A stretch of DNA of 64,000 nt from positions 31,686 to 95,685 of the forward strand of contig JBEKDT010000018.1 of NCBI GenBank assembly GCA_050014195.1, in the 5' to 3' direction. The notes below the pieces were generated by a model that did no database searches, was not told the DNA's origin, and saw only the letters and a program-made list of their open reading frames with translations. Of the stretch, positions 43,666 to 53,755 are shown piece by piece. Source of the DNA: Desulfomonilia bacterium. Its GTDB lineage: Bacteria > Desulfobacterota > Desulfomonilia > UBA1062. Position numbers and translations under genes: made by a program. Numbering within the stretch: the stretch's first letter is position 1; the number at the start of each line of letters is the position of its first letter.

Positions 43666-44808
43666 ATGGTGCACATTATTCCCAAGGATGACCCGAAACA
43701 AACCTTGAGGGTCAAAAGATTCCTCATGGCATTTGACACATACGTCATATGGATGCTTATCGCCCTATACTGTTATTATGACGGGCTGTTCGCGAGATTG
43801 CCATGGTCGATTTACTGGACTCTTACCCTCATCATAACGACGAACCTTATCATTTTCTTCTTAATCCGCTCAGGGTTGAATAGACGATTTAAGGACCCGA
43901 GTCTTACGATGATTCAAATAGTTCTCGCAACAGTATGGATCATGTTCATGGCATATTGCCTGGATGAGGGGCGAGGGATAATGCTCCTCCTCTACTTGGT
44001 GGTCTTCACCTTCGGTACCTTCAAGCTGAGCTTCCGCCAGTTTTTTATACTCTCTGTTCTCGCTCTCTTGGGGTATGGCTTTGTTATTACACTTCTGCTC
44101 ATCAACCACCCCAAGAGTGTTAATCTCAGAGTAGAACTATTTTACTCGGGTACGCTGTTCGCCGTGCTCATATGGTTTTCTTTTATCGGGAGCTATATCA
44201 ATGGGCTCAGAAAGAAACTGAGCAGGGCAAATATTGAACTCAGCAACACCAACGATGCGCTCAATGACGCCAATCAGGTCATTAAGCAGCAAGCGATTCT
44301 CGATGACCTCACAGGGATATATAACAGAGGCCATCTGTTCCATATTCTATCGCGAGAAAAAAGTCTTGCTGATCGTGGAGCATTCATGTTCTGCCTATGC
44401 ATTTTTGATCTTGACGACTTTAAAAAGGTAAATGACACCCATGGCCACCTTGCCGGAGACATGGTGCTGAGGGTTCTTAGCAAGAGGATTAGGGATAGTA
44501 TCCGGAAAGAAGATTACTTTGCCCGTTACGGCGGTGAGGAATTTGTCCTCATCCTTGCCTACCCGAACCTGAAGGATGGGCTAATCTCTGCCAACAGGAT
44601 CCAAAAGCTGGTCTCGGAAACTACCTATCCTGATCTGCCGGAAGATTTTCGTATAACCATCTCCATGGGGATCACCCGATATCAACCTCTGGAGGACATC
44701 GATACGCTCCTGAGAAGAGCTGATGATGCTCTTTATAAGGCAAAGAAATCCGGCAAGAACTGTATCGTATGCGAACCATCCATGGTTCAACTAAGAGCCA
44801 TAGACTAA
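43666..44808 (+). CDS. multi-TM diguanylate cyclase
   Basis: Several TM helices; DDLTG, FKKVNDTHGHLAGD, RKED (RxxD I-site), RYGGEEF. Confidence 0.94.
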   Translation: MVHIIPKDDPKQTLRVKRFLMAFDTYVIWMLIALYCYYDGLFARLPWSIYWTLTLIITTNLIIFFLIRSGLNRRFKDPSLTMIQIVLATVWIMFMAYCLDEGRGIMLLLYLVVFTFGTFKLSFRQFFILSVLALLGYGFVITLLLINHPKSVNLRVELFYSGTLFAVLIWFSFIGSYINGLRKKLSRANIELSNTNDALNDANQVIKQQAILDDLTGIYNRGHLFHILSREKSLADRGAFMFCLCIFDLDDFKKVNDTHGHLAGDMVLRVLSKRIRDSIRKEDYFARYGGEEFVLILAYPNLKDGLISANRIQKLVSETTYPDLPEDFRITISMGITRYQPLEDIDTLLRRADDALYKAKKSGKNCIVCEPSMVQLRAID

Positions 44809-45272
44809 AAATTTTACTCCCAGTCACATCTTAAATTATTCTCACAATATCAAATTACAAACGGCAATTCTCCAGCATGGGAATGCATAGAACATGTGCG
44901 AGTCTGTTGAAAAAGTCCGAATCACCAGCTTTTGGCATATTTAATTGAAAAAGCTGTCTATACGATCAAAATCTGGGCCGAGTAATGCCTTGCATAAGAT
45001 GAATTAATAGTTATTATATCAGAATAACTACTAGAATACTATAAAGTTTAAGGCAGACTGCCTTGCATGTAAAGCCAATTATATATAAGACTTTTGTTTC
45101 ATACTTATGACTGAATCTGGTTCCGGGGTTTTATAAAAGCATGAGCAGTAAGTAGCTAAATATAGTGAGGGAAAGCCGATGAAGGGCCTAAGAAGACTTT
45201 TTCTCTCGCATTTCGGATCATTCATTGTCTTCTTTCCTATTTACACTTTTTACAACAAAAGGTGTTGACCCG

Positions 45273-48200
45273 ATGTTCAAAAAACCACAGGGTAAAGAAT
45301 CCAATAAAATTGAAAAGAAGCAAAAAAAGAAAGCTGGTCTAATTGAGGAAATTGAAAATGATTGTATTGAACAACTTAAAGATTTGACAGCAATTAAAGA
45401 TCTGGCTCAAAAAATTACTTCCACTCTCTCACTTAATCAAGTTATCGCATCTGCCTATGAACATATTCTCTCTACTATAGCCCCAGATTTAGTTGTTATC
45501 TACTTACTTGATGAAGATAAATTGATTACGCAGGGAGAAAAACCTGAGAACCCGATATTCAAACAGGAATCACCTGATATAAAGTGTTTTGGCCAGTGTC
45601 TCTGCGGCTTGGTCGCTAAAGATGGTGAGCCAATATATTCTATCGATATCCATACTGATCACCGGTGCACCCTGAATGAATGTAAAAAGGCAGGGTTAAT
45701 ATCATTTGCAGCATTACCCCTTATCGTGGACAGAGATATTCAAGGTGTATTGGGTATTGGGTCATTTACTAGGCGAGATTTTTCTCACCAGGCATCTTTC
45801 TTGGAAATGCTTTCACTTCACATTGCAATTGCCATTAAGAACGCAATGTTGCATGAAAAACTGGGAGAGTATTCTCAGAAGCTCAATCAGACTTTAATGA
45901 ATCTCGTACAATCAGAAGAAGATAAAAAACGTGCTCAGAAAGAATGGGGTGATATCTTTCAAGCAATCCGTAATCCAATCCTTATTCTAGATGTGAACCA
46001 CAACATACTCATGGCAAACCCAGCGGCAGAAAAACTCACAGGCATGCTGAAGGATGAGCTCTACGGGAAGAAATGTCATGAAATAGTCCATGGGATTGAT
46101 ATCCCGGCCGAATGCTGCCCTATAGAAAAAATGCTCCAATCAGGTCAGTTGGAAACCTTTGAGATGCAAATGGAAACCATTGGAGGTGTATTTCTGGTCT
46201 CCTGTACCCCTGTTGTAGATGAGAAGGGGCAGATCGAAAAAGTCATCCATATCAGCACCGATATCACCAAACGAAAGCAGATGGAAAAAGCGCTTTACGA
46301 GAGTGAGCGCAAATACCGTGAGCTCGTTGAAAAAGCAAACAGCATCATCCTGCGCTGGAACCGCCTGGGAGAAATCACGTTCATGAATGAGTTCGGCCAG
46401 AGATTCTTCGGCTATACCGAAGCAGAGATCCTGGGACGACATGTAGTGGGCACTATAGTTCCTGAAACGGAGAGCACTGGGAGAGATTTGCGACCACTTA
46501 TGGAGGAAATCTGTCTACATCCATTGAAGTTTGAGAGAAACATCAATGAAAACATGCGCCGGAACGGTGACCGGGTTTGGATCGATTGGACTAACAAGAT
46601 AGTTCTTAATGATCAGGGCGAGCTGATCGAAATATTGAGCATTGGATCGGACATTACAGAGCGCAAGGAATTGGAGAATTCGCTACAGGTATCTGAAACC
46701 AGGTTCAGGAGACTCCTTGACAGCATCATGGATGCCTTTGTCGTTGTAGATATGAATGGTTCCATTAAGGAGTTCAATCATGTCTACCGGGACATGCTCG
46801 GCTATGAGCAAGATGAATTGTACAGCCTTACGTATAAAGATATCACTCCTGAAAAATGGCATAAATTCGAAGAAGAAATTGTTGAAAAACAAGTACTCCC
46901 GATGGGATATTCAGAGATCTATCAAAAGGAATACCGGAGAAAAGACGGCACAATCTTTCCTGTCGAGTTAAGAACATATCTCATTAAAGATGAAGCCGGG
47001 AAACCCATCGGCATGTGGGGAATCATACACGATATCACAAGACGAAAGCGGGCAGAGGATGAACTACGGGAGAGTGAGAGACGGTATCGTCAATTAATAG
47101 AACAGGCTGCAGACGGCATCTTTGTCGTGGATCCCAACGGCAATTATCTACTGGTCAATTCAACGTTCTATAAAATGCTTAGGTATACGGGGGATGAGCT
47201 GCTCAAGCTGAATGTCCTTGACACCTATCCTGACGAATTAAGAGATGTCGGTCAACAGCGTTTTGACCGTGTTACATCAGGGGAGAATCTCAGGTTCGAA
47301 CGGCCCATGAAGCGTAAGGATGGTACGATATTTCAAGTGGAAATAAGCGTGTCAAAACTTGATGACGGGAGGCACCAAGGGATCGTTCGTGACATTACAG
47401 ATCGAAAAAAAGCCGAGGATGAAAAGAAGAAGTTAGAGAATGAGCTCATCCAAGCCCAGAAAATGGAATCCATAGGGACGCTGGCTGGCGGCATCGCACA
47501 CGACTTCAACAACATCCTGTCTGCAATCATCGGATACGCCCAGCTTGCCATGTACGATGTCTCAGAACCGGAGCAGGCGAGGAAAGAGCTCAATGAGGTG
47601 CTCAAGGCGGGTGACCGGGCCAAGGACCTTGTGAGTCAGATTCTCACCTTCAGCCGCAAGGCCGATGCCAGATATTCTCCAATTTCACTGACCAAAACTG
47701 TTATGGATTCGATCAAGATGATGCGGTCCGTTCTCCCCACAACGATTGATATCCGTCATGACCTTATCGATTCAGGACTGGTCATGGCTGATCCTACACA
47801 GATCCATCAAGTCATGCTGAATCTCTGCGCCAATGCAGCCCACGCAATGGACAAGACCGGCGGCGTGATGGAGGTGAGACTGAGGAGAGTTGATATCGAT
47901 GAAGGCCCCCAGTCCCTTGAACCGAATCTGCCTCCTGGTCCCTATCTGTGGCTCTCCATAAGCGATACCGGCCATGGCATGACCCCTGAGGTCATGGCTC
48001 GGATATTTGATCCATATTTTACCACCAAGGAAATCGGACGGGGAACGGGCCTGGGGCTGGCGGTCGTTCACGGGATCGTGCAGAGCCATGGTGGCACCAT
48101 CACCTGTGCAAGTTCACCCGGCAAGGGGACAACCTTCGATATATACCTGCCTGAAATAATGTCAGAAGAAGCTGTAGTGAGGCAACATGAGGAAAGGCCT

Positions 48201-48581
48201 CTCCCGATCGGAACTGAGCGTATCCTCTTCATTGATGATGAACCTATTTTAGTGGAGCTGGCTGAAGAGATGTTGAGCAAACTGGGATATACCGTGGTTA
48301 CAAAATCAAGCAGTACAGAAGCCCTCGAACTTTTCCAGAAAGACCCTGACAACTATGATCTGGTGATTACCGACATGACAATGCCGGGCATGACAGGGGA
48401 CAGACTCGCCCAGAAAATTCTGGAGATCCGTCATGATATCCCGATCATCCTGTGCTCCGGTTATAGTGAGCATATTTCGGAGGAGAAGGCAAAAAAGATC
48501 GGCATTCGGAAATTTGTCATGAAGCCCTTAGAAGTGAAAGAGTTGGCGAAAACCATCCGAAAGGTACTTGATGGAGGGTAA
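45273..48581 (+). CDS. hybrid sensor kinase (GAF, 4 PAS, HisKA, HATPase, REC)
   Basis: GAF-like N-terminus, four PAS/PAC repeats ending in DIT, AHDFNN, PYFTTK, GTGLGL, C-terminal REC; start uncertain (track 45225). Confidence 0.93.
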
Positions 48582-48905: not shown

Positions 48906-49736
48906 ATGGCAATACTGGAAAAGACCCAGAGCATGGCATTGTTCTGTGACTTTGAGAATATCGCCCTCGGCGTTCGAGACGCCAAATATGCCCAGTTCGA
49001 CGTGAAGAAGATCCTTGAGCGATTGCTGCTCAAGGGGAACATCATTGTGAAAAAGGCCTACAGCGACTGGGAGCGATATAAAGACTATAAGCCGGTCATG
49101 CATGAGGCATCCTTCGAACTCATCGAGATCCCGCACCTCAGGCAGTCCGGCAAGAACTCGGCCGACATCCGCATGGTCGTGGACGCGCTGGACCTCTGCT
49201 ACACCAAGTCGCATGTGGACACCTTCGTGATCATCAGCGGCGACTCGGATTTCTCGCCGCTGGTAAGCAAGCTGAGGGAGAACAACAAGCTCGTCATCGG
49301 TGTGGGGGTGAAGAACTCATCGTCAGAGCTTCTCATAGCAAACTGCGACGAGTTCATCTTCTACGACGACCTGGTGCGTGAAAGCGAGGCCAAGAGACGC
49401 AAAATCAGAAGGCCCGTAGTGAAAGCCACACATGAGGCACCGGTCAAGCCGGAGCAGAAGGAGAATGCCGAGGAAGACAAGAAGCAGAAGGCGTTGGACC
49501 TGGTGGTAGAGACCGTGGAGGCGTTGTTCGATGAACGGGGCGAGGAAGACAAGCTCTGGGGCTCCATGATAAAACAGGCCCTCAGACGGCGCAAACCCGG
49601 ATTCAACGAGAGCTACTACGGGTTCAGGTCCTTCAGCCGGCTCCTGGAAGAGGCGCGGGACAGGCACCTGCTGGAGCTGGAGCTCGACGAGAAGTCGGGC
49701 AGCTACATCATCAAGACCGTCCTCCACGAAGAGTAA
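48906..49736 (+). CDS. NYN domain protein with C-terminal OST-HTH/LOTUS domain
   Basis: FCDFEN, GKNSADI, SGDSDFSPL; FNESYYGFRSFSRLL. Confidence 0.9.
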   Translation: MAILEKTQSMALFCDFENIALGVRDAKYAQFDVKKILERLLLKGNIIVKKAYSDWERYKDYKPVMHEASFELIEIPHLRQSGKNSADIRMVVDALDLCYTKSHVDTFVIISGDSDFSPLVSKLRENNKLVIGVGVKNSSSELLIANCDEFIFYDDLVRESEAKRRKIRRPVVKATHEAPVKPEQKENAEEDKKQKALDLVVETVEALFDERGEEDKLWGSMIKQALRRRKPGFNESYYGFRSFSRLLEEARDRHLLELELDEKSGSYIIKTVLHEE

Positions 49737-49745
49737 ATCAGAACC

Positions 49746-49770
49746 TGTAGGAGCGGCTTTAGCCGCGACA
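49746..49770 (+). repeat. single REP unit identical to the left arm at 36496
   Basis: TGTAGGAGCGGCTTTAGCCGCGAC. Confidence 0.85.
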
Positions 49771-49844
49771 GGAATAAGGGGTGCACGCAACTTCTTCGCC
49801 CCGTTCATCCGACCCTCCATGCTGTTGCGACCATTATTAATATA

Positions 49845-49985
49845 TGGAACCACCGGTGTGAGCAGTGCTTCGCCTGCCTGCAGTGGTGCCCGCAGGAGGC
49901 GATCCAATACGGCAAGAAGACACCCCGGTATGAGCGGTACCATCATCCGGAGATTGTCTTGAAGGACGTCCTGAAATCACGGTGA
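49845..49985 (+). pseudogene. C-terminal remnant of a 4Fe-4S ferredoxin-domain (EFR1-like) gene
   Basis: WNHRCEQCFACLQWCPQEAIQYGKKTPRYERYHHPEIVLKDVLKSR*; CxxCxxCxxxCP motif; no ATG back to the in-frame TAA at 49734. Confidence 0.8.
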
Positions 49986-50035
49986 CTATCGGGCTGGTAT
50001 AGCCTGATAGATGGTTCGCATCCTAAATTCTTTTC

Positions 50036-50157
50036 TCACCACGAAGAGCACGAAGAAGATCTAAAAAATGCAGAACAAACACTCTTGGATCCTATGAACC
50101 GGTCCGCTATTTCAAAAGGTTTCCTTTTTTCGTGTTCTAAAGTGCTCTTCGTGGTAA
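50036..50157. repeat. MITE-like element with 9-mer inverted arms, copy 2
   Basis: CACCACGAAGAGCACGAAG...AAATGCAGAACA...TGAACCGGTCCGCTATTTCAAAAGGTTTCC...GTGCTCTTCGTGGT. Confidence 0.8.
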
Positions 50158-50516
50158 AGGATCCCTCTTCTCGTACTTCCAATGTTACACTCTTGCCCTG
50201 TTCCTTCAACAAGTAGCGTCCCCCACACTCGGAACCCCAGGCCTATGGCCTTTTCTCACACCTCTAGATTTTAAGATCCATTCATGATATAATTTTCATA
50301 GTTCATGATAGTAATCTTATAATCCTACACCACGAAATCACTTATCACGGCAATGAGTATGCGGAGGGTGGAACGTACCTTCTTCTTTTTGAAGTGTTGA
50401 CATGGGATATTCCATCATGAGGATAGGTATGAAAGGTGATAACAGGTCAAGGCAACTTTGCCTGAAAATGTGTCCACTATCATATTATCAAGGCAAATCT
50501 ACCTGTTAATCAATGG

Positions 50517-50643
50517 TTGGCGCGGCGCTTCTCGCCGCTTTGGTAGTTGCAGTGAAGAACGCGGGGGGGGGGTAGTTCAATGGTCGGAAATAATCCAACA
50601 CAGCGCCGCGCCCAAGGGGGTTCCGCCCAACTCGCCGTTAGCC
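50517..50643 (+). mobile_element. 5'-degenerate long attC site (attC-0)
   Basis: 11-bp perfect inverted repeat GGCGCGGCGCT/AGCGCCGCGCC, then R' core GTTAGCC (50637), complementary to the R'' of the next attC. Confidence 0.6.
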
Positions 50644-50685
50644 GCACAAAGGATAGACAATAATGCCAATGCAAAAGGGTAACAA

Positions 50686-51708
50686 ATGACCATCAATGAA
50701 AAACTACTGCCAACTTGGGAATATTATGAATACTATTATGATTGCAGCCAGGAATCGATCAGAGAATTCTTAATGCATAAACATAAGTTTCTAGAAAGGC
50801 AGTCCATGGCGATTACTTTCATAGAGACAATAATGAAAAATCATAACAAACAAGAGTTATTAACTCATGTTTCAGAACTGGCACGCATTGAACATGGCAT
50901 CCGGGGATTAGAACCCTGGGTTAGAGATCATGTTGTCCATGCTATGCTTAGTTATTTGCTCGGAATATATCTGAATGAGAAGTTTATAAAGAATGTAATC
51001 GGCAGCAGTGTTGATACATTTCAGTGGAAATTAGCCGGACTATTTCATGATGTTGGTTACCCCACAGAAATAGCCACGGACTTACTAAAATCATATGCTG
51101 ACAAAATAAATGAAATAAGAAATAAGATAGGAGTGTCCGCACATGATATACATTTTAGTATAGTTCTCCAAGGGATAGCAAAATTACAGAATAACGCAGA
51201 TAGTTTTGCTTTAATTCAAAATTATCTCGACAAATGGGGCCTTAAAATTAATAGTAGAAATATCTATGATAGTTATATTGAGACCGGTAAGATTTGTCAT
51301 GGTATGATAAGCGCTCTTTGCGTTTTATATATTATTGATCTGTTATATCAAAAAAATAATCCACACAGAGAAAACCTTCTATACTCTGGTTGGTCACAAG
51401 AATATTTTGATAATGATGTGGTGCCTGCATGTGCTGCCATATTTATTCATAACCTGCCTGCGCAATATTTTAGAGAAGCAAAAATATCCCTTGAAAGGAC
51501 TCCTATAGCTTATTTGCTAAAACTTTCCGATTGTTTGCAGGACTGGGAACGACCATCAAAGAATAATAGAAAAGGGTTTTCAGCAAGTTTATATGATATA
51601 GAAATAAACAACAATAAATTACTATTTTCTGTACCTCCAAAAAGAAAGAATAAAATTACTAATGAAGTTGAGGGTTGTATATCATCAGAACATATAATAA
51701 TCAAATAG
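50686..51708 (+). CDS. HD-superfamily phosphohydrolase, integron cassette gene
   Basis: RDHVVH, FHDVGYP, HGMIS, IHN, SDCLQDWER; AT-rich; bounded by attC cores. Confidence 0.8.
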   Translation: MTINEKLLPTWEYYEYYYDCSQESIREFLMHKHKFLERQSMAITFIETIMKNHNKQELLTHVSELARIEHGIRGLEPWVRDHVVHAMLSYLLGIYLNEKFIKNVIGSSVDTFQWKLAGLFHDVGYPTEIATDLLKSYADKINEIRNKIGVSAHDIHFSIVLQGIAKLQNNADSFALIQNYLDKWGLKINSRNIYDSYIETGKICHGMISALCVLYIIDLLYQKNNPHRENLLYSGWSQEYFDNDVVPACAAIFIHNLPAQYFREAKISLERTPIAYLLKLSDCLQDWERPSKNNRKGFSASLYDIEINNNKLLFSVPPKRKNKITNEVEGCISSEHIIIK

Positions 51709-51715
51709 ACGACTC

Positions 51716-51779
51716 GGCTAACCTTGCTGCTGCAGGGGGACGGTGTAAAAGCGCGCCGCCCCTGAGCAGCCCGTTGGGT
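51716..51779 (+). mobile_element. integron attC site 1
   Basis: GGCTAAC..GCTGCT[G]CAGGGG..CCCCTGAGCAGC..GTTGGGT; 64 bp with extrahelical G; directly after the stop codon. Confidence 0.88.
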
Positions 51780-51814
51780 GGCTCATTTCCAATGAGTTTC
51801 AGAGAACAATAACC

Positions 51815-52708
51815 GTGGCTCCTACCAATAAAGCTTGCTGGAAATGTAGGAAGATAGTTGAGGCCGAATGGCTATGTTGTCCTTATTGTGCAACTCGCCT
51901 GCGCGATACCCGTGAGCCATCTTTGCCACAAATAGAAAGAGATATCCATTTTCTGAAAGATTTGTACTCTTTTGGTTGGTATAACCGTGACCTAACGGCA
52001 ATTGTTCTTTACGAAAGCGTTGCCACCGTTGAGCATTACTATAACCCCGGAAGGTTAGATAACCACAAGCCATTAGTTGAAACAAGTCGTGCTCAGAAAA
52101 TCCTCCGCTTAAAGATATTTGCTGAGTACATCGCACTTCTTGAAGCATTTGGTTATCTTTGTATCGCTATAAGAGAACGCCGAAAGAAAAGTATCCCCTG
52201 GACATATATAAATACTGACCCGCAGGAAGTCGTACAATTTTATAATCAGATATTATCTAACCCTAATCCACCCTCCTTACACCGCCTTCTCAAATTGCCG
52301 TCACTCTCACAAGTTCAGAAAGCAGCCGTATCCCATCTTGATGCAATCTTTCCCGAACTCGAAAAAATAGGTGATGCTAATGGCATCTATGCACCGTTTA
52401 TTCAAAACATCCGCATTTGCGCGGAACTATATCGCGATAAGTCCGATTTAAATGTGCGCATCTACAATAAGATAAAGCATGTATTTTCGATTGTGGAAGG
52501 ACAGAACTGGATAACTTGGGAAAACCCGCCAGATGTAGCTCATGCTACAATTCTCGTAGAATTAAATGATACTGCGCAGACAATTTCTTTTGATATGGCA
52601 CAAGAAAAAGCCGATGATGAAATGGCAAACATCCGGCGGGTAACAGAAATGGGCGCTGAACTTTTGGCGATATGTATTGGCCTCAACGAATTAGGTATTT
52701 TGTTTTGA
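51815..52708 (+). CDS. Zn-ribbon plus HEPN-like protein, integron cassette gene
   Basis: CWKC..CPYC at the N-terminus; helical body with RIYNKIKH; GTG start. Confidence 0.7.
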   Translation: MAPTNKACWKCRKIVEAEWLCCPYCATRLRDTREPSLPQIERDIHFLKDLYSFGWYNRDLTAIVLYESVATVEHYYNPGRLDNHKPLVETSRAQKILRLKIFAEYIALLEAFGYLCIAIRERRKKSIPWTYINTDPQEVVQFYNQILSNPNPPSLHRLLKLPSLSQVQKAAVSHLDAIFPELEKIGDANGIYAPFIQNIRICAELYRDKSDLNVRIYNKIKHVFSIVEGQNWITWENPPDVAHATILVELNDTAQTISFDMAQEKADDEMANIRRVTEMGAELLAICIGLNELGILF

Positions 52709-52719
52709 CCAAAGCCGCC

Positions 52720-52777
52720 ACCCAACACCGCGTGCAGCGGATTGGCCTCCGGCCAGCCGCTGACGCATCCGTTATCT
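52720..52777 (+). mobile_element. integron attC site 2
   Basis: ACCCAAC..GCGT[G]CAGCGG[A]TTGGCC-TCC-GGCCAGCCGCTGACGC..GTTATCT; 58 bp with two extrahelical bases. Confidence 0.9.
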
Positions 52778-52800
52778 TCCTCGTCTTTCTCCTCATCCTA

Positions 52801-52834
52801 TTGAAATACACATAATTTGTGATATAATGTGTAT
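52801..52834 (+). promoter_or_regulatory. vapBC promoter with inverted-repeat operator
   Basis: TTGAAA-16 bp-TATAAT overlapped by ATACACAT/ATGTGTAT. Confidence 0.7.
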
Positions 52835-52860
52835 ACGAGTAAAAACAACGGGAGTTGATT

Positions 52861-53064
52861 ATGAAACGTACCAATATCGTGCTTGATGATAAACTAGTAG
52901 CTGATTGTATGAAAGCCACAGGTATTAAAACACAGAAGGCATTAATAGATCATGCTTTGAATGAGTTACTTCGTCGGGAAAATCAGACAAAAATAATTGA
53001 ACTTAAGGGCAAGGTTCATTGGGAGGGCAATCTGGACGAGTGGCGTCAGGGGCGTAGTTTATAA
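52861..53064 (+). CDS. vapB: VapB-family antitoxin
   Basis: MKRTNIVLDDKLV..TGIKT..ALNEL..LKGKVHWEGNLDEWR; GGGAG RBS. Confidence 0.9.
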   Translation: MKRTNIVLDDKLVADCMKATGIKTQKALIDHALNELLRRENQTKIIELKGKVHWEGNLDEWRQGRSL

Positions 53065-53291
53065 TGGTGCTGGTTGATACAACCTTTTTAAGATCTGCTG
53101 AAATCTATCGTTCTCTCCGACAGAAAGGTATTACCATAAGAAAACCTGTGGATTGCATGATTGCCTCTGTTGCAATTGAAAATGAAATCCCTCTCCTTGA
53201 TAATGACAAGGATTTTGATCTTATTGAAAACCATTTCGGCATGAGAAGAATTTCAAAAGTTAAACATCCAACCGGCCCTGGCATCCGGTGA
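53064..53291 (+). pseudogene. vapC: VapC PIN toxin with large in-frame internal deletion
   Basis: MVLVDT joined directly to the C-terminal half (RQKGITIRKPVDCMIASVA..LLDNDKDF); 75 aa versus ~130 aa typical. Confidence 0.8.
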
Positions 53292-53302
53292 CACCATCTT
53301 TT

Positions 53303-53755
53303 TCACTTTCCCCTGAGAACTGCCTGGATCAAGCCATCGAGATGCTGCAGGAAGCGGGAACGATCCCGCTTTCCAAAAGGGACAGGCCCGCTGGTATTGT
53401 TCCCCATATCGCGGAGATAGGCTGACAGTTCTCTATTTGCAAGGGCATCGCCAATGGTTTCCTTGGTGAAGACACGTCCCTTGGGATCTATCACACGGGC
53501 GCCATTCTTCAGACACCGCGAAGCAAGGAGGATGTCGGCCGATACTGCGATATCGTTATCATGAATATTCTCGGTAATCCAATCGTCAGCAGCATCAAAG
53601 TGGTCCTTAACAAGGACCATCTCGGCCAATACGTCTTTCGGTATCCTTATGCCGGTGTTGGAGACAAGGTAGACCTTGAACCCGTAACGTCCGGCAACTC
53701 GAAACACCTCATCCTTCACCGGGCATGCGTCGGCATCGACATATATCTCCATCAA
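53303..53755 (-). CDS. YaiI/YqxD (UPF0178) family protein
   Basis: [23 protein letters not shown]. Confidence 0.9.

Follow-up and report, generated by a model that had tools for sequence, protein, structure and literature searches.

How do clusters of attC sites that lack integron integrases (CALINs) arise, and can they still change once no integrase gene stands beside them? Both points are open: in the survey of Cury et al. (2016; PMC4889954; this and the other papers are cited here from parts of their text) loss of the integrase gene intI is one of four proposed origins, most CALINs are without a recognisable intI pseudogene (pseudogenes lay near 15 of 279), and the entry site attI was sought for classes 1-3 by exact match only and remained unsearched beyond them. 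The question is posed in concrete form by positions 50517-53291 of a 64,000-nucleotide stretch of Desulfomonilia bacterium DNA (assembly GCA_050014195.1, contig JBEKDT010000018.1), which as a whole is called the window here and whose source assembly is G000. A first-pass annotation had described these positions as a CALIN with two canonical attC sites and an eroded third one upstream, carrying mobile defence cargo that could be mobilised in trans. We consider it probable that the locus is a decapitated integron, which retained its attI, lost intI, had its cassettes changed afterwards in trans and carries conflict cargo. The CALIN class and intI loss as an origin are already known; new here are the attI family together with its integrase clade, the overlap of the intI stub with a candidate promoter, a before/after pair of genomes and two unnamed candidate defence proteins.

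Cassette array and entry site

The locus is a genuine integron gene-cassette array, and the label CALIN follows from the definition in PMC4889954, that is, attC sites without an IntI above cut-off. The array has no fewer than two attC sites showing R''/L''/L'/R' boxes and a bottom-strand hairpin, no integron integrase lies nearby and, as first annotated, both sites follow stop codons, starting 8 nt past that of the first open reading frame (ORF1, stop at 51708) and 12 nt past that of the second (ORF2, stop at 52708). Using a de-novo structural attC scanner at threshold 12 we found these two sites and no other in the 64-kb window, and two scanner matches occurred in 0 of 200 Markov-3 controls of the 3-kb array (mean 0.025). 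The first-pass annotation had made its reading depend on a covariance model scoring the sites; a model for which 30 attC sites of other genomes and of metagenome contigs served as the training set (97.4% of cells paired) indeed scores both of them on the bottom strand (Table 1). Shuffle z-scores for folding within the array are weak (-0.59 and -2.23), which hybrid sites would lead one to expect; rebuilt as in the circular form, they fold end to end with -22.4 and -29.5 kcal/mol. The four cassette-end motifs quoted in the earlier description are present in their places, and the AT-richness of the cassette genes holds as well, with a GC content of 33.5% for ORF1, 41.8% for ORF2 and 39.7% for the vapBC pair of the last cassette against 50.2% for the genome. 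The same is true of the missing integrase: the source assembly, 4.2 Mb in 29 contigs and stated to be 100% complete, contains no IntI (TIGR02249) above cut-off anywhere, and 48 matches to the attC model, with 150 of 1155 first-look candidates scored. A complete integron or In0, with intI beside attI, is not what the locus holds. Rfam gave no match at E up to 1 across 49700-53400, and contigs of four sequencing runs, which drop rare variants and of which two runs possibly represent the source sample, have no joint inside the array.

We depart from the first-pass annotation where the array begins on the left. Its eroded upstream attC consists of a right half only (50625-50643, 12.5 bits, E 1); we rejected it as a full attC, as it reaches only a half-site score. 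The entry site is instead an attI, whose core at 50504-50522 lies just left of the start of the flagged stretch. All features expected of such a site are there, namely the 5' end of an opposite-strand intI, a simple site with G|TT entry and upstream direct repeats (two 23-nt copies, 78% alike, 41 nt apart). A query of 50370-50645 matched 9 of 52 family genomes, with most matches ending at 50518-50521, and the aligned attI loci have about 135 bp in common up to the L box, followed by the 5-bp spacer and G|TT, at which these homologous loci diverge into unrelated cassettes. The 31-nt core was found at 11 sites in 8 of the 52 family genomes and at 19 sites in 15 of 401 phylum genomes, the reversed pattern at none in either set, and 24 metagenome stretches also contain it, three of them identical to the window locus. 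From 53 attI loci examined, one off-pattern locus and seven duplicates were removed, leaving 45, and nine with short flanks were set aside, leaving 36 with at least 600 nt of flank; the loci are partly near-copies of one another and not all independent. A full-length intI adjoins on the opposite strand in two of these 36, a partial or frameshifted one in eight and none in 26. The four bases past GTT at the first-cassette end are exactly complementary to the attC R'' in 15 of the 19 loci with a downstream attC, which places the crossover at 50516|50517. Judged by its sequence, the entry point of the array is the attI of an intI-deleted integron and not an eroded attC. Since the left junction is an attI, it is also not an attG, the genomic insertion site (neither attI nor attC) of the single attC sites lacking an integron integrase (SALINs). 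A literature search, with most subscription papers outside its scope, returned among the matches listed nothing on this attI family, on an integrase-less attI or on the HD family of ORF1 described below.

Loss of intI and probable cassette turnover

What is left of intI in the window are its first six codons. The intI start lies 113-120 nt from the crossover in L107, L094 and L100, and the stub lies at 113 nt, as does the start of the intact gene at locus L107. Three integrases adjoining this attI could be placed in a tree, where they form one clade of their own (support 100/99); IntI above cut-off occurs in 25 of the 52 family genomes. The non-intI block that replaces the body of the gene is duplicated together with attI on another contig. 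A profile search of G000 found this one further copy of the window attI (contig C2, E 2e-8) and none in the reversed genome. As the copy (L146, 265604-265899) shares window positions 50229-50519 at 82%, non-intI sequence included, the intI-less platform was copied as a unit. The core of the copy is eroded, it precedes a gene of 946 aa and attC was not detected there. By eye, the 946-aa protein begins like a metallophosphoesterase and is a possible defence gene.

A comparison is possible with the sister genome G106. At its orthologous locus (G106:C9) the flanks are 92-96% identical, and the similarity is continuous over an identical stub junction up to G|TT. Beyond this point G106 carries four attC-bounded cassettes, none of which matches a window cassette, and the shared sequence resumes at 53302. 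The stub junction is common to both genomes, so the deletion of intI is older than their split, and the different cassettes behind it mean that at least one lineage swapped cassettes afterwards, at the exact crossover. Such a change would have needed an integrase from elsewhere. Most likely, as far as the two sequences tell, the array was remodelled after the loss of intI by an integrase acting in trans, which suggests that integrase-less arrays can keep changing once their own integrase is gone. The proposal that the array could be mobilised in trans gains support from this comparison, with the correction that the array is headed by an attI with an intI stub.

The boundary between array and chromosome on the right is 53301|53302. 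In G106 an intact attC ends there, and G105 has an attC remnant at the same junction. At the 53302 junction of G107 (L149:968-1022) and G104 (L151:1444-1497) a 54-bp piece of the vapBC promoter region is found, 87-89% identical to 52772-52825. Together with the attC remnant of G105, these promoter pieces mark the junction as an old cassette site in the genus.

It seems feasible to combine these results in the following way. An integron of a distinct IntI clade would once have stood at the locus, and its intI was deleted down to six codons, with attI and the candidate promoter overlapping the intI start remaining, as homology shows. After the deletion, cassettes would have been inserted at attI, or cleanly excised from it, by an integrase encoded elsewhere, for which we rely on G106; this may have been a then-living cognate copy or another IntI clade common in the family. 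Today the array is probably frozen, because the assembly contains no intact intI. Its cargo would most likely serve anti-phage or other conflict functions, with the toxin of vapBC lost.

The candidate cassette promoter Pc might explain why the stub was kept. Its perfect -35 hexamer (50397-50402) is the intI start codon read backwards, and in six relatives (L087, L088, L092, L094, L100, L108) the -10 element has 5-6 of 6 positions. Several counts speak against a general rule of this kind: the -10 is weak in the window, with 3 of 6 positions there as in L107; among 27 intI-less loci, the similarity to intI-bearing loci ends just past the -35 in 8, two of which are orthologues, and 13 lose it before the hexamer and 6 further out; and the strict start stub is kept in only 5 of the 27. 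Given these variable end points and few strict stubs, promoter-driven trimming of intI is a fair inference for a subset of loci only. We saw no fixed recombination boundary where the platform ends on the left, its end points being variable, and repetitive extragenic palindromic (REP)-type repeats as the left boundary found no support.

Table 1. Features of the array and its platform (window positions).
Feature	Position	Strand	Details
Non-intI block replacing the intI body	50229-50385	.	84% identical to G000:C2 only; continuous with the G106 orthologue
intI stub, first six codons (MSTLQK)	50386-50403	-	same start in intact intI L107 and in pseudogenes/longer stubs L094, L100
Candidate cassette promoter Pc	50397-50425	+	reverse complement of the intI start forms the -35 hexamer; -10 degenerate
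attI	50447-50522	+	direct repeat 50447-50469 / 50488-50510; L box 50504-50510; 5-bp spacer; R box 50516-50522
ORF-less 121-bp unit	50517-50637	+	terminal inverted repeat; ends in half attC
Cassette 1	50638-51773	+	ORF1 50686-51708, 340 aa; unnamed family of putative HD-fold phosphohydrolases
attC of cassette 1	51716-51779	+ (bottom strand folds)	covariance model 37.9 bits, E 1e-6
Cassette 2	51774-52771	+	ORF2 51815-52708, 297 aa; N-terminal zinc ribbon and HEPN-like helical domain, predicted homodimer
attC of cassette 2	52720-52777	+	covariance model 25.2 bits, E 0.001
Cassette 3	52772-53301	+	own promoter 52801-52828; vapB 52861-53064; vapC 53064-53291
Collapsed terminal (fourth) attC, absent from the first-pass annotation	53266-53301	+	not scored by the covariance model; probably inactive

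The cassette proteins

ORF1 is a member of a family of stand-alone proteins about 345 aa long, with 295 relatives (173 clusters at 50% at E 1e-30 or better), which are spread patchily over many bacterial phyla and archaea at 45-55% identity. The residues H82, H85, H121 and D122 are kept in all 116 diverse relatives compared and D282 in 114 of them. In a fold search with the predicted structure (predicted local distance difference test, pLDDT, 89.9) the top matches are all HD/PDEase proteins (best Z 11.4, root-mean-square deviation, rmsd, 3.1, 156 residues aligned). ORF1 resembles this superfamily (HD domain of PPX/GppA, PDE, YhaM) in its predicted helical fold and its H...HD...D metal ligands, to which two further conserved histidines are added; it differs in being a stand-alone family without a solved sequence relative, and HD-CE appears only among Atlas matches below 0.9. 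The Pfam HD model stays below cut-off for ORF1 and the family below every Pfam cut-off, a PDB sequence search with the HD alignment gave nothing meaningful, and Foldseek found no match at E 0.001 or better for ORF1 or ORF2. Among 17 close-family loci of ORF1, two are attC cassettes, one of them as scored by the model and the other as judged by eye. Distant relatives (L026-L052; 22-27% identity over residues 75-290) occur in Promethearchaeota, related archaea and Bacillota, and an Atlas structure search showed longer forms of them, some clustered with RyR domains.

For ORF2 we obtained 24 sequence matches, with no relative in the 400 other phylum genomes or in viral contigs. Its NxxKH motif (N218, K221, H222) is invariant in 23 of 23 aligned members. 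HEPN structures occupy ranks 2-4 of the fold search (3jrt with Z 7.1, rmsd 4.1 and 146 aligned residues; 7ae2 with Z 6.9; 2hsb with Z 6.6). HEPN RNases are known as homodimers with the motif at the interface. The predicted homodimer of ORF2 scores 0.86, versus 0.00 for the best control, with at least 94% shared contacts and pLDDT of at least 83, and its interface holds residue 219 and residues 221-232, the motif region; of true homodimers 20 of 30 come up to the mark for a homodimer, of single chains 1 of 23. This modelled score may reflect likeness to solved HEPN dimers. Pfam HEPN models matched none of 23 family members, and ORF2 has no similarity to the LA2681-type HEPN protein. Set beside HEPN RNases, among them 3jrt from an integron cassette (PMC3710099), ORF2 shares the predicted four-helix arrangement, NxxKH at a helix end, upstream acidic residues and the predicted dimer, and differs in its variable motif arginine, its N-terminal zinc ribbon and the missing Pfam HEPN match. 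We would give about even weight to the assignment of ORF1 as a phosphohydrolase that depends on metal and has nucleic acid or a nucleotide as its substrate, and of ORF2 as a dimeric HEPN-like RNase.

The last cassette had been described as a self-promoted toxin-antitoxin pair. Its promoter (11 of 12 consensus positions) and an intact vapB (PF09957, 52.4 bits versus a cut-off of 23.4) are indeed present; the toxin part does not stand. Residues 6-59 of the 75-aa vapC product match only positions 71-124 of the 125-position VapC model, below cut-off, and an internal in-frame deletion has removed about 65 residues. Contigs of three of the four runs span this deleted form without gaps. The pair is probably dead and, lacking these residues, would probably no longer stabilise the array.

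Alternatives, related systems and sequence context

How far our account of the locus holds has to be judged by several points that tell against it. Turnover after the loss of intI is seen in a single orthologous pair, G000 and G106; the same-genus genomes G104, G105, G109 and G097 have other genes left of yaiI and no such attI; in G106 only 2 of 4 bases agree between the first cassette end and the first attC; and the 52 family genomes contain no intact member of the cognate integrase clade (best intact 60%; fragments at 86-89% and 70%). Furthermore, non-overlapping arrays could arise by differential loss from one long ancestral array. In its full form this alternative holds that the array was long before intI was lost, that G000 and G106 kept different pieces of it through integrase-independent deletions and that no insertion followed. 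Decay is seen throughout, from the half site at 50625-50643 to the collapsed terminal attC, the deleted vapC and the imperfect first-cassette match of G106, and Xanthomonas strains with one intI lesion usually carry identical arrays (10.1101/2025.06.18.660453). We nevertheless regard such a relic as decidedly unlikely, since the two genomes diverge exactly at the G|TT of attI, rejoin exactly at 53302 and have no cassette in common, and since clean crossover junctions point to integrase chemistry. That the integron is instead distributed and still active, with an intact intI in an assembly gap or on a transient mobile element serving the attI sites today, seems unlikely to us. It would be in line with the attC clusters at several contig ends (C7, C9, C10, C12, C13, C28) of an assembly in 29 contigs and with about a dozen motifs in G000, recognised by eye, that resemble a second attI family, four of them with complementary first-cassette ends; against it stand the stated completeness, the failure of any IntI to pass the cut-off and the fact that the only intI trace is an internal 3' remnant. 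Least credible, to the point of being highly improbable, is a secondary chromosomal site of the attG type or a broken-off array tail headed by an eroded attC, without any attI. The right-arm likeness of 50625-50643 to attC and the different cassette behind it at G106:C44 would fit; the 150 bp upstream are, however, homologous to the intI-attI region of intact integrons, intI start codon included, and at L107, L108 and L127 the same site adjoins intI.

As for the cargo, the defence part of the first-pass proposal has to be stated with more caution than its mobile part, as it draws on gene neighbourhoods and fold likeness only. ORF1 could be a phosphohydrolase of the nucleotide pool or of signalling, and ORF2 a dimer that is regulatory or has no catalytic role, neither of them defensive, which is well possible, though not what we expect. 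Chromosomal integron cassettes are reported to encode phage defence often (10.1101/2024.07.02.601686). Weighing against a defence role, PADLOC (2023 library, E up to 1) recognised 0 of the 4 array proteins; PADLOC, NCBIfam and PHROGs have no family naming ORF1 or ORF2; the closest solved folds of ORF1 are the PPX/GppA HD domain and cyclic-nucleotide phosphodiesterases; and 10 of 17 close-family loci have no clear defence family among the scanned neighbours (an uncontrolled count, 68 of 83 neighbour ORFs scanned). Likewise against an HEPN RNase, only 12 of 23 rows, counted by eye, carry R215, the arginine of the motif, the top rank of the ORF2 fold search is a non-HEPN protein (Z 7.5), and the HEPN Z-scores (up to 7.1) are within the range of generic helical bundles; HEPN variants without the motif arginine have been described (PMC3710099). 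What argues for defence is the patchy spread of ORF1 over many bacterial and archaeal groups at 45-55% identity, a relative inserted inside a type I restriction operon (L010) and the defence-type Pfam families found within three ORFs in the other 7 of the 17 loci, namely restriction enzymes, AbiJ-NTD, HEPN and Cap12-TIR. We therefore keep both proteins as candidates for anti-phage screens.

Going beyond the decapitated integron favoured here, we put forward a wider and rather doubtful idea: an intI-less attI with its promoter might be a copyable landing pad that outlives its cognate integrase, as in the duplication within G000, and is reloaded by non-cognate integrases, selection for cassette expression might trim intI, many CALINs might be cryptic attI platforms, and the ORF1 family might be a new bacterial and archaeal HD defence family. 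If the landing-pad idea were true, the integron would work as a distributed system, with stubs invisible to integrase searches. With a defined attI, an integrase clade to match it and a before/after pair supplied by nature, the locus allows loading in trans to be tested directly.

Compared with published systems, the array is like the CALINs of PMC4889954 in having at least two attC sites, no nearby intI and a small set of uncharacterised genes; here, attI and a six-codon stub too short for a pseudogene search reveal the origin directly, and turnover appears to have followed the loss. SALINs and attG sites (10.1101/2022.09.11.507474) are likewise small integrase-less cassette units, for which the explanation is an integrase that acts away from its own locus; the target there is a generic genomic site, whereas here it is a true attI accompanied by direct repeats and the stub of intI. 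In Xanthomonas chromosomal integrons with deleted or truncated intI, too, the platform is kept and the integrase decayed (10.1101/2025.06.18.660453). In these a shared lesion usually goes with identical arrays at ilvD, whereas here one shared lesion is found with wholly different arrays, and the window attI family stands at unrelated loci, up to two per genome, and not at one locus as in Xanthomonas. Class 1 integrons (PMC8876359; 10.1101/2022.02.06.479319) also have a simple attI1 site with upstream direct repeats and a Pc in the 5' end of intI; the window sequence is unrelated to theirs, and its candidate Pc places the -35 at the start codon of intI, some 120 nt away from the crossover.

Between attI and cassette 1 lies the 121-bp unit without an ORF, whose half attC (L'-5 nt-R') is the half site discussed above. 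It occurs four times across two genomes, in two cases whole and in two truncated, each time starting directly after G|TT: whole behind the window-type attI both in the window itself and at G106:C44 (there with another cassette after it), and truncated at G000:C9 behind a restriction-modification cassette and at G106:C27. Gene-less promoter cassettes of the Vibrio superintegron (10.1101/2023.11.21.568050) are similar as ORF-less units at G|TT ahead of gene cassettes; the window unit differs by its half attC and by the absence of a promoter consensus inside it. A gene-less cassette in the strict sense has a complete 3' attC, which this unit lacks, and a full-length parent was found neither in the 401 phylum genomes nor in plasmids or viral contigs (one unrelated match). 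The unit is probably a long-attC remnant or a gene-less cassette; the simplest reading is that it is what remains of a long attC and travelled in the manner of a gene-less cassette.

G000 contains further traces of integrons. The second attI family, which adjoins integrases in G104, G099 and G109, was recognised by eye, and a fuzzy pattern for it was too loose for a count (18 matches versus 9 in the reversed control). At G000:C10:179387-181142 (L078) the internal 3' remnant of intI, its last ~22 codons, belongs to a clade other than that of the window attI; next to it lie two attC and a two-gene cassette complete in itself, and the contig ends nearby, running into insertion sequence-like sequence. 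The restriction-modification-like two-gene cassette at G000:C9:44040-46830 (L053; 520 aa and 328 aa, function from motifs) stands behind a second-family attI and is followed by the truncated copy of the 121-bp unit. A large integrase-less array with at least 16 matches to the attC model likewise stands behind a second-family attI (G000:C1:149481-165076, L060).

A dispersed imperfect inverted-repeat element of about 150 bp (50010-50161; 46 BLAST matches in the genome, high read depth) lies left of the attI block, and a REP-like palindrome at 49746-49770 has dozens of genome copies (53 BLAST matches for 49735-49800). Between them, 49800-49987 is a 3' fragment of a ferredoxin-like gene with CxxC motifs; G106 has about 3.5 kb more here, the longer form of this gene included, which indicates a deletion left of the platform. 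Further out, within 43666-48581, the otherwise collinear G106 lacks the PAS/histidine-kinase-like gene of 3.4 kb (45225-48581) along with about 1.4 kb of additional sequence.

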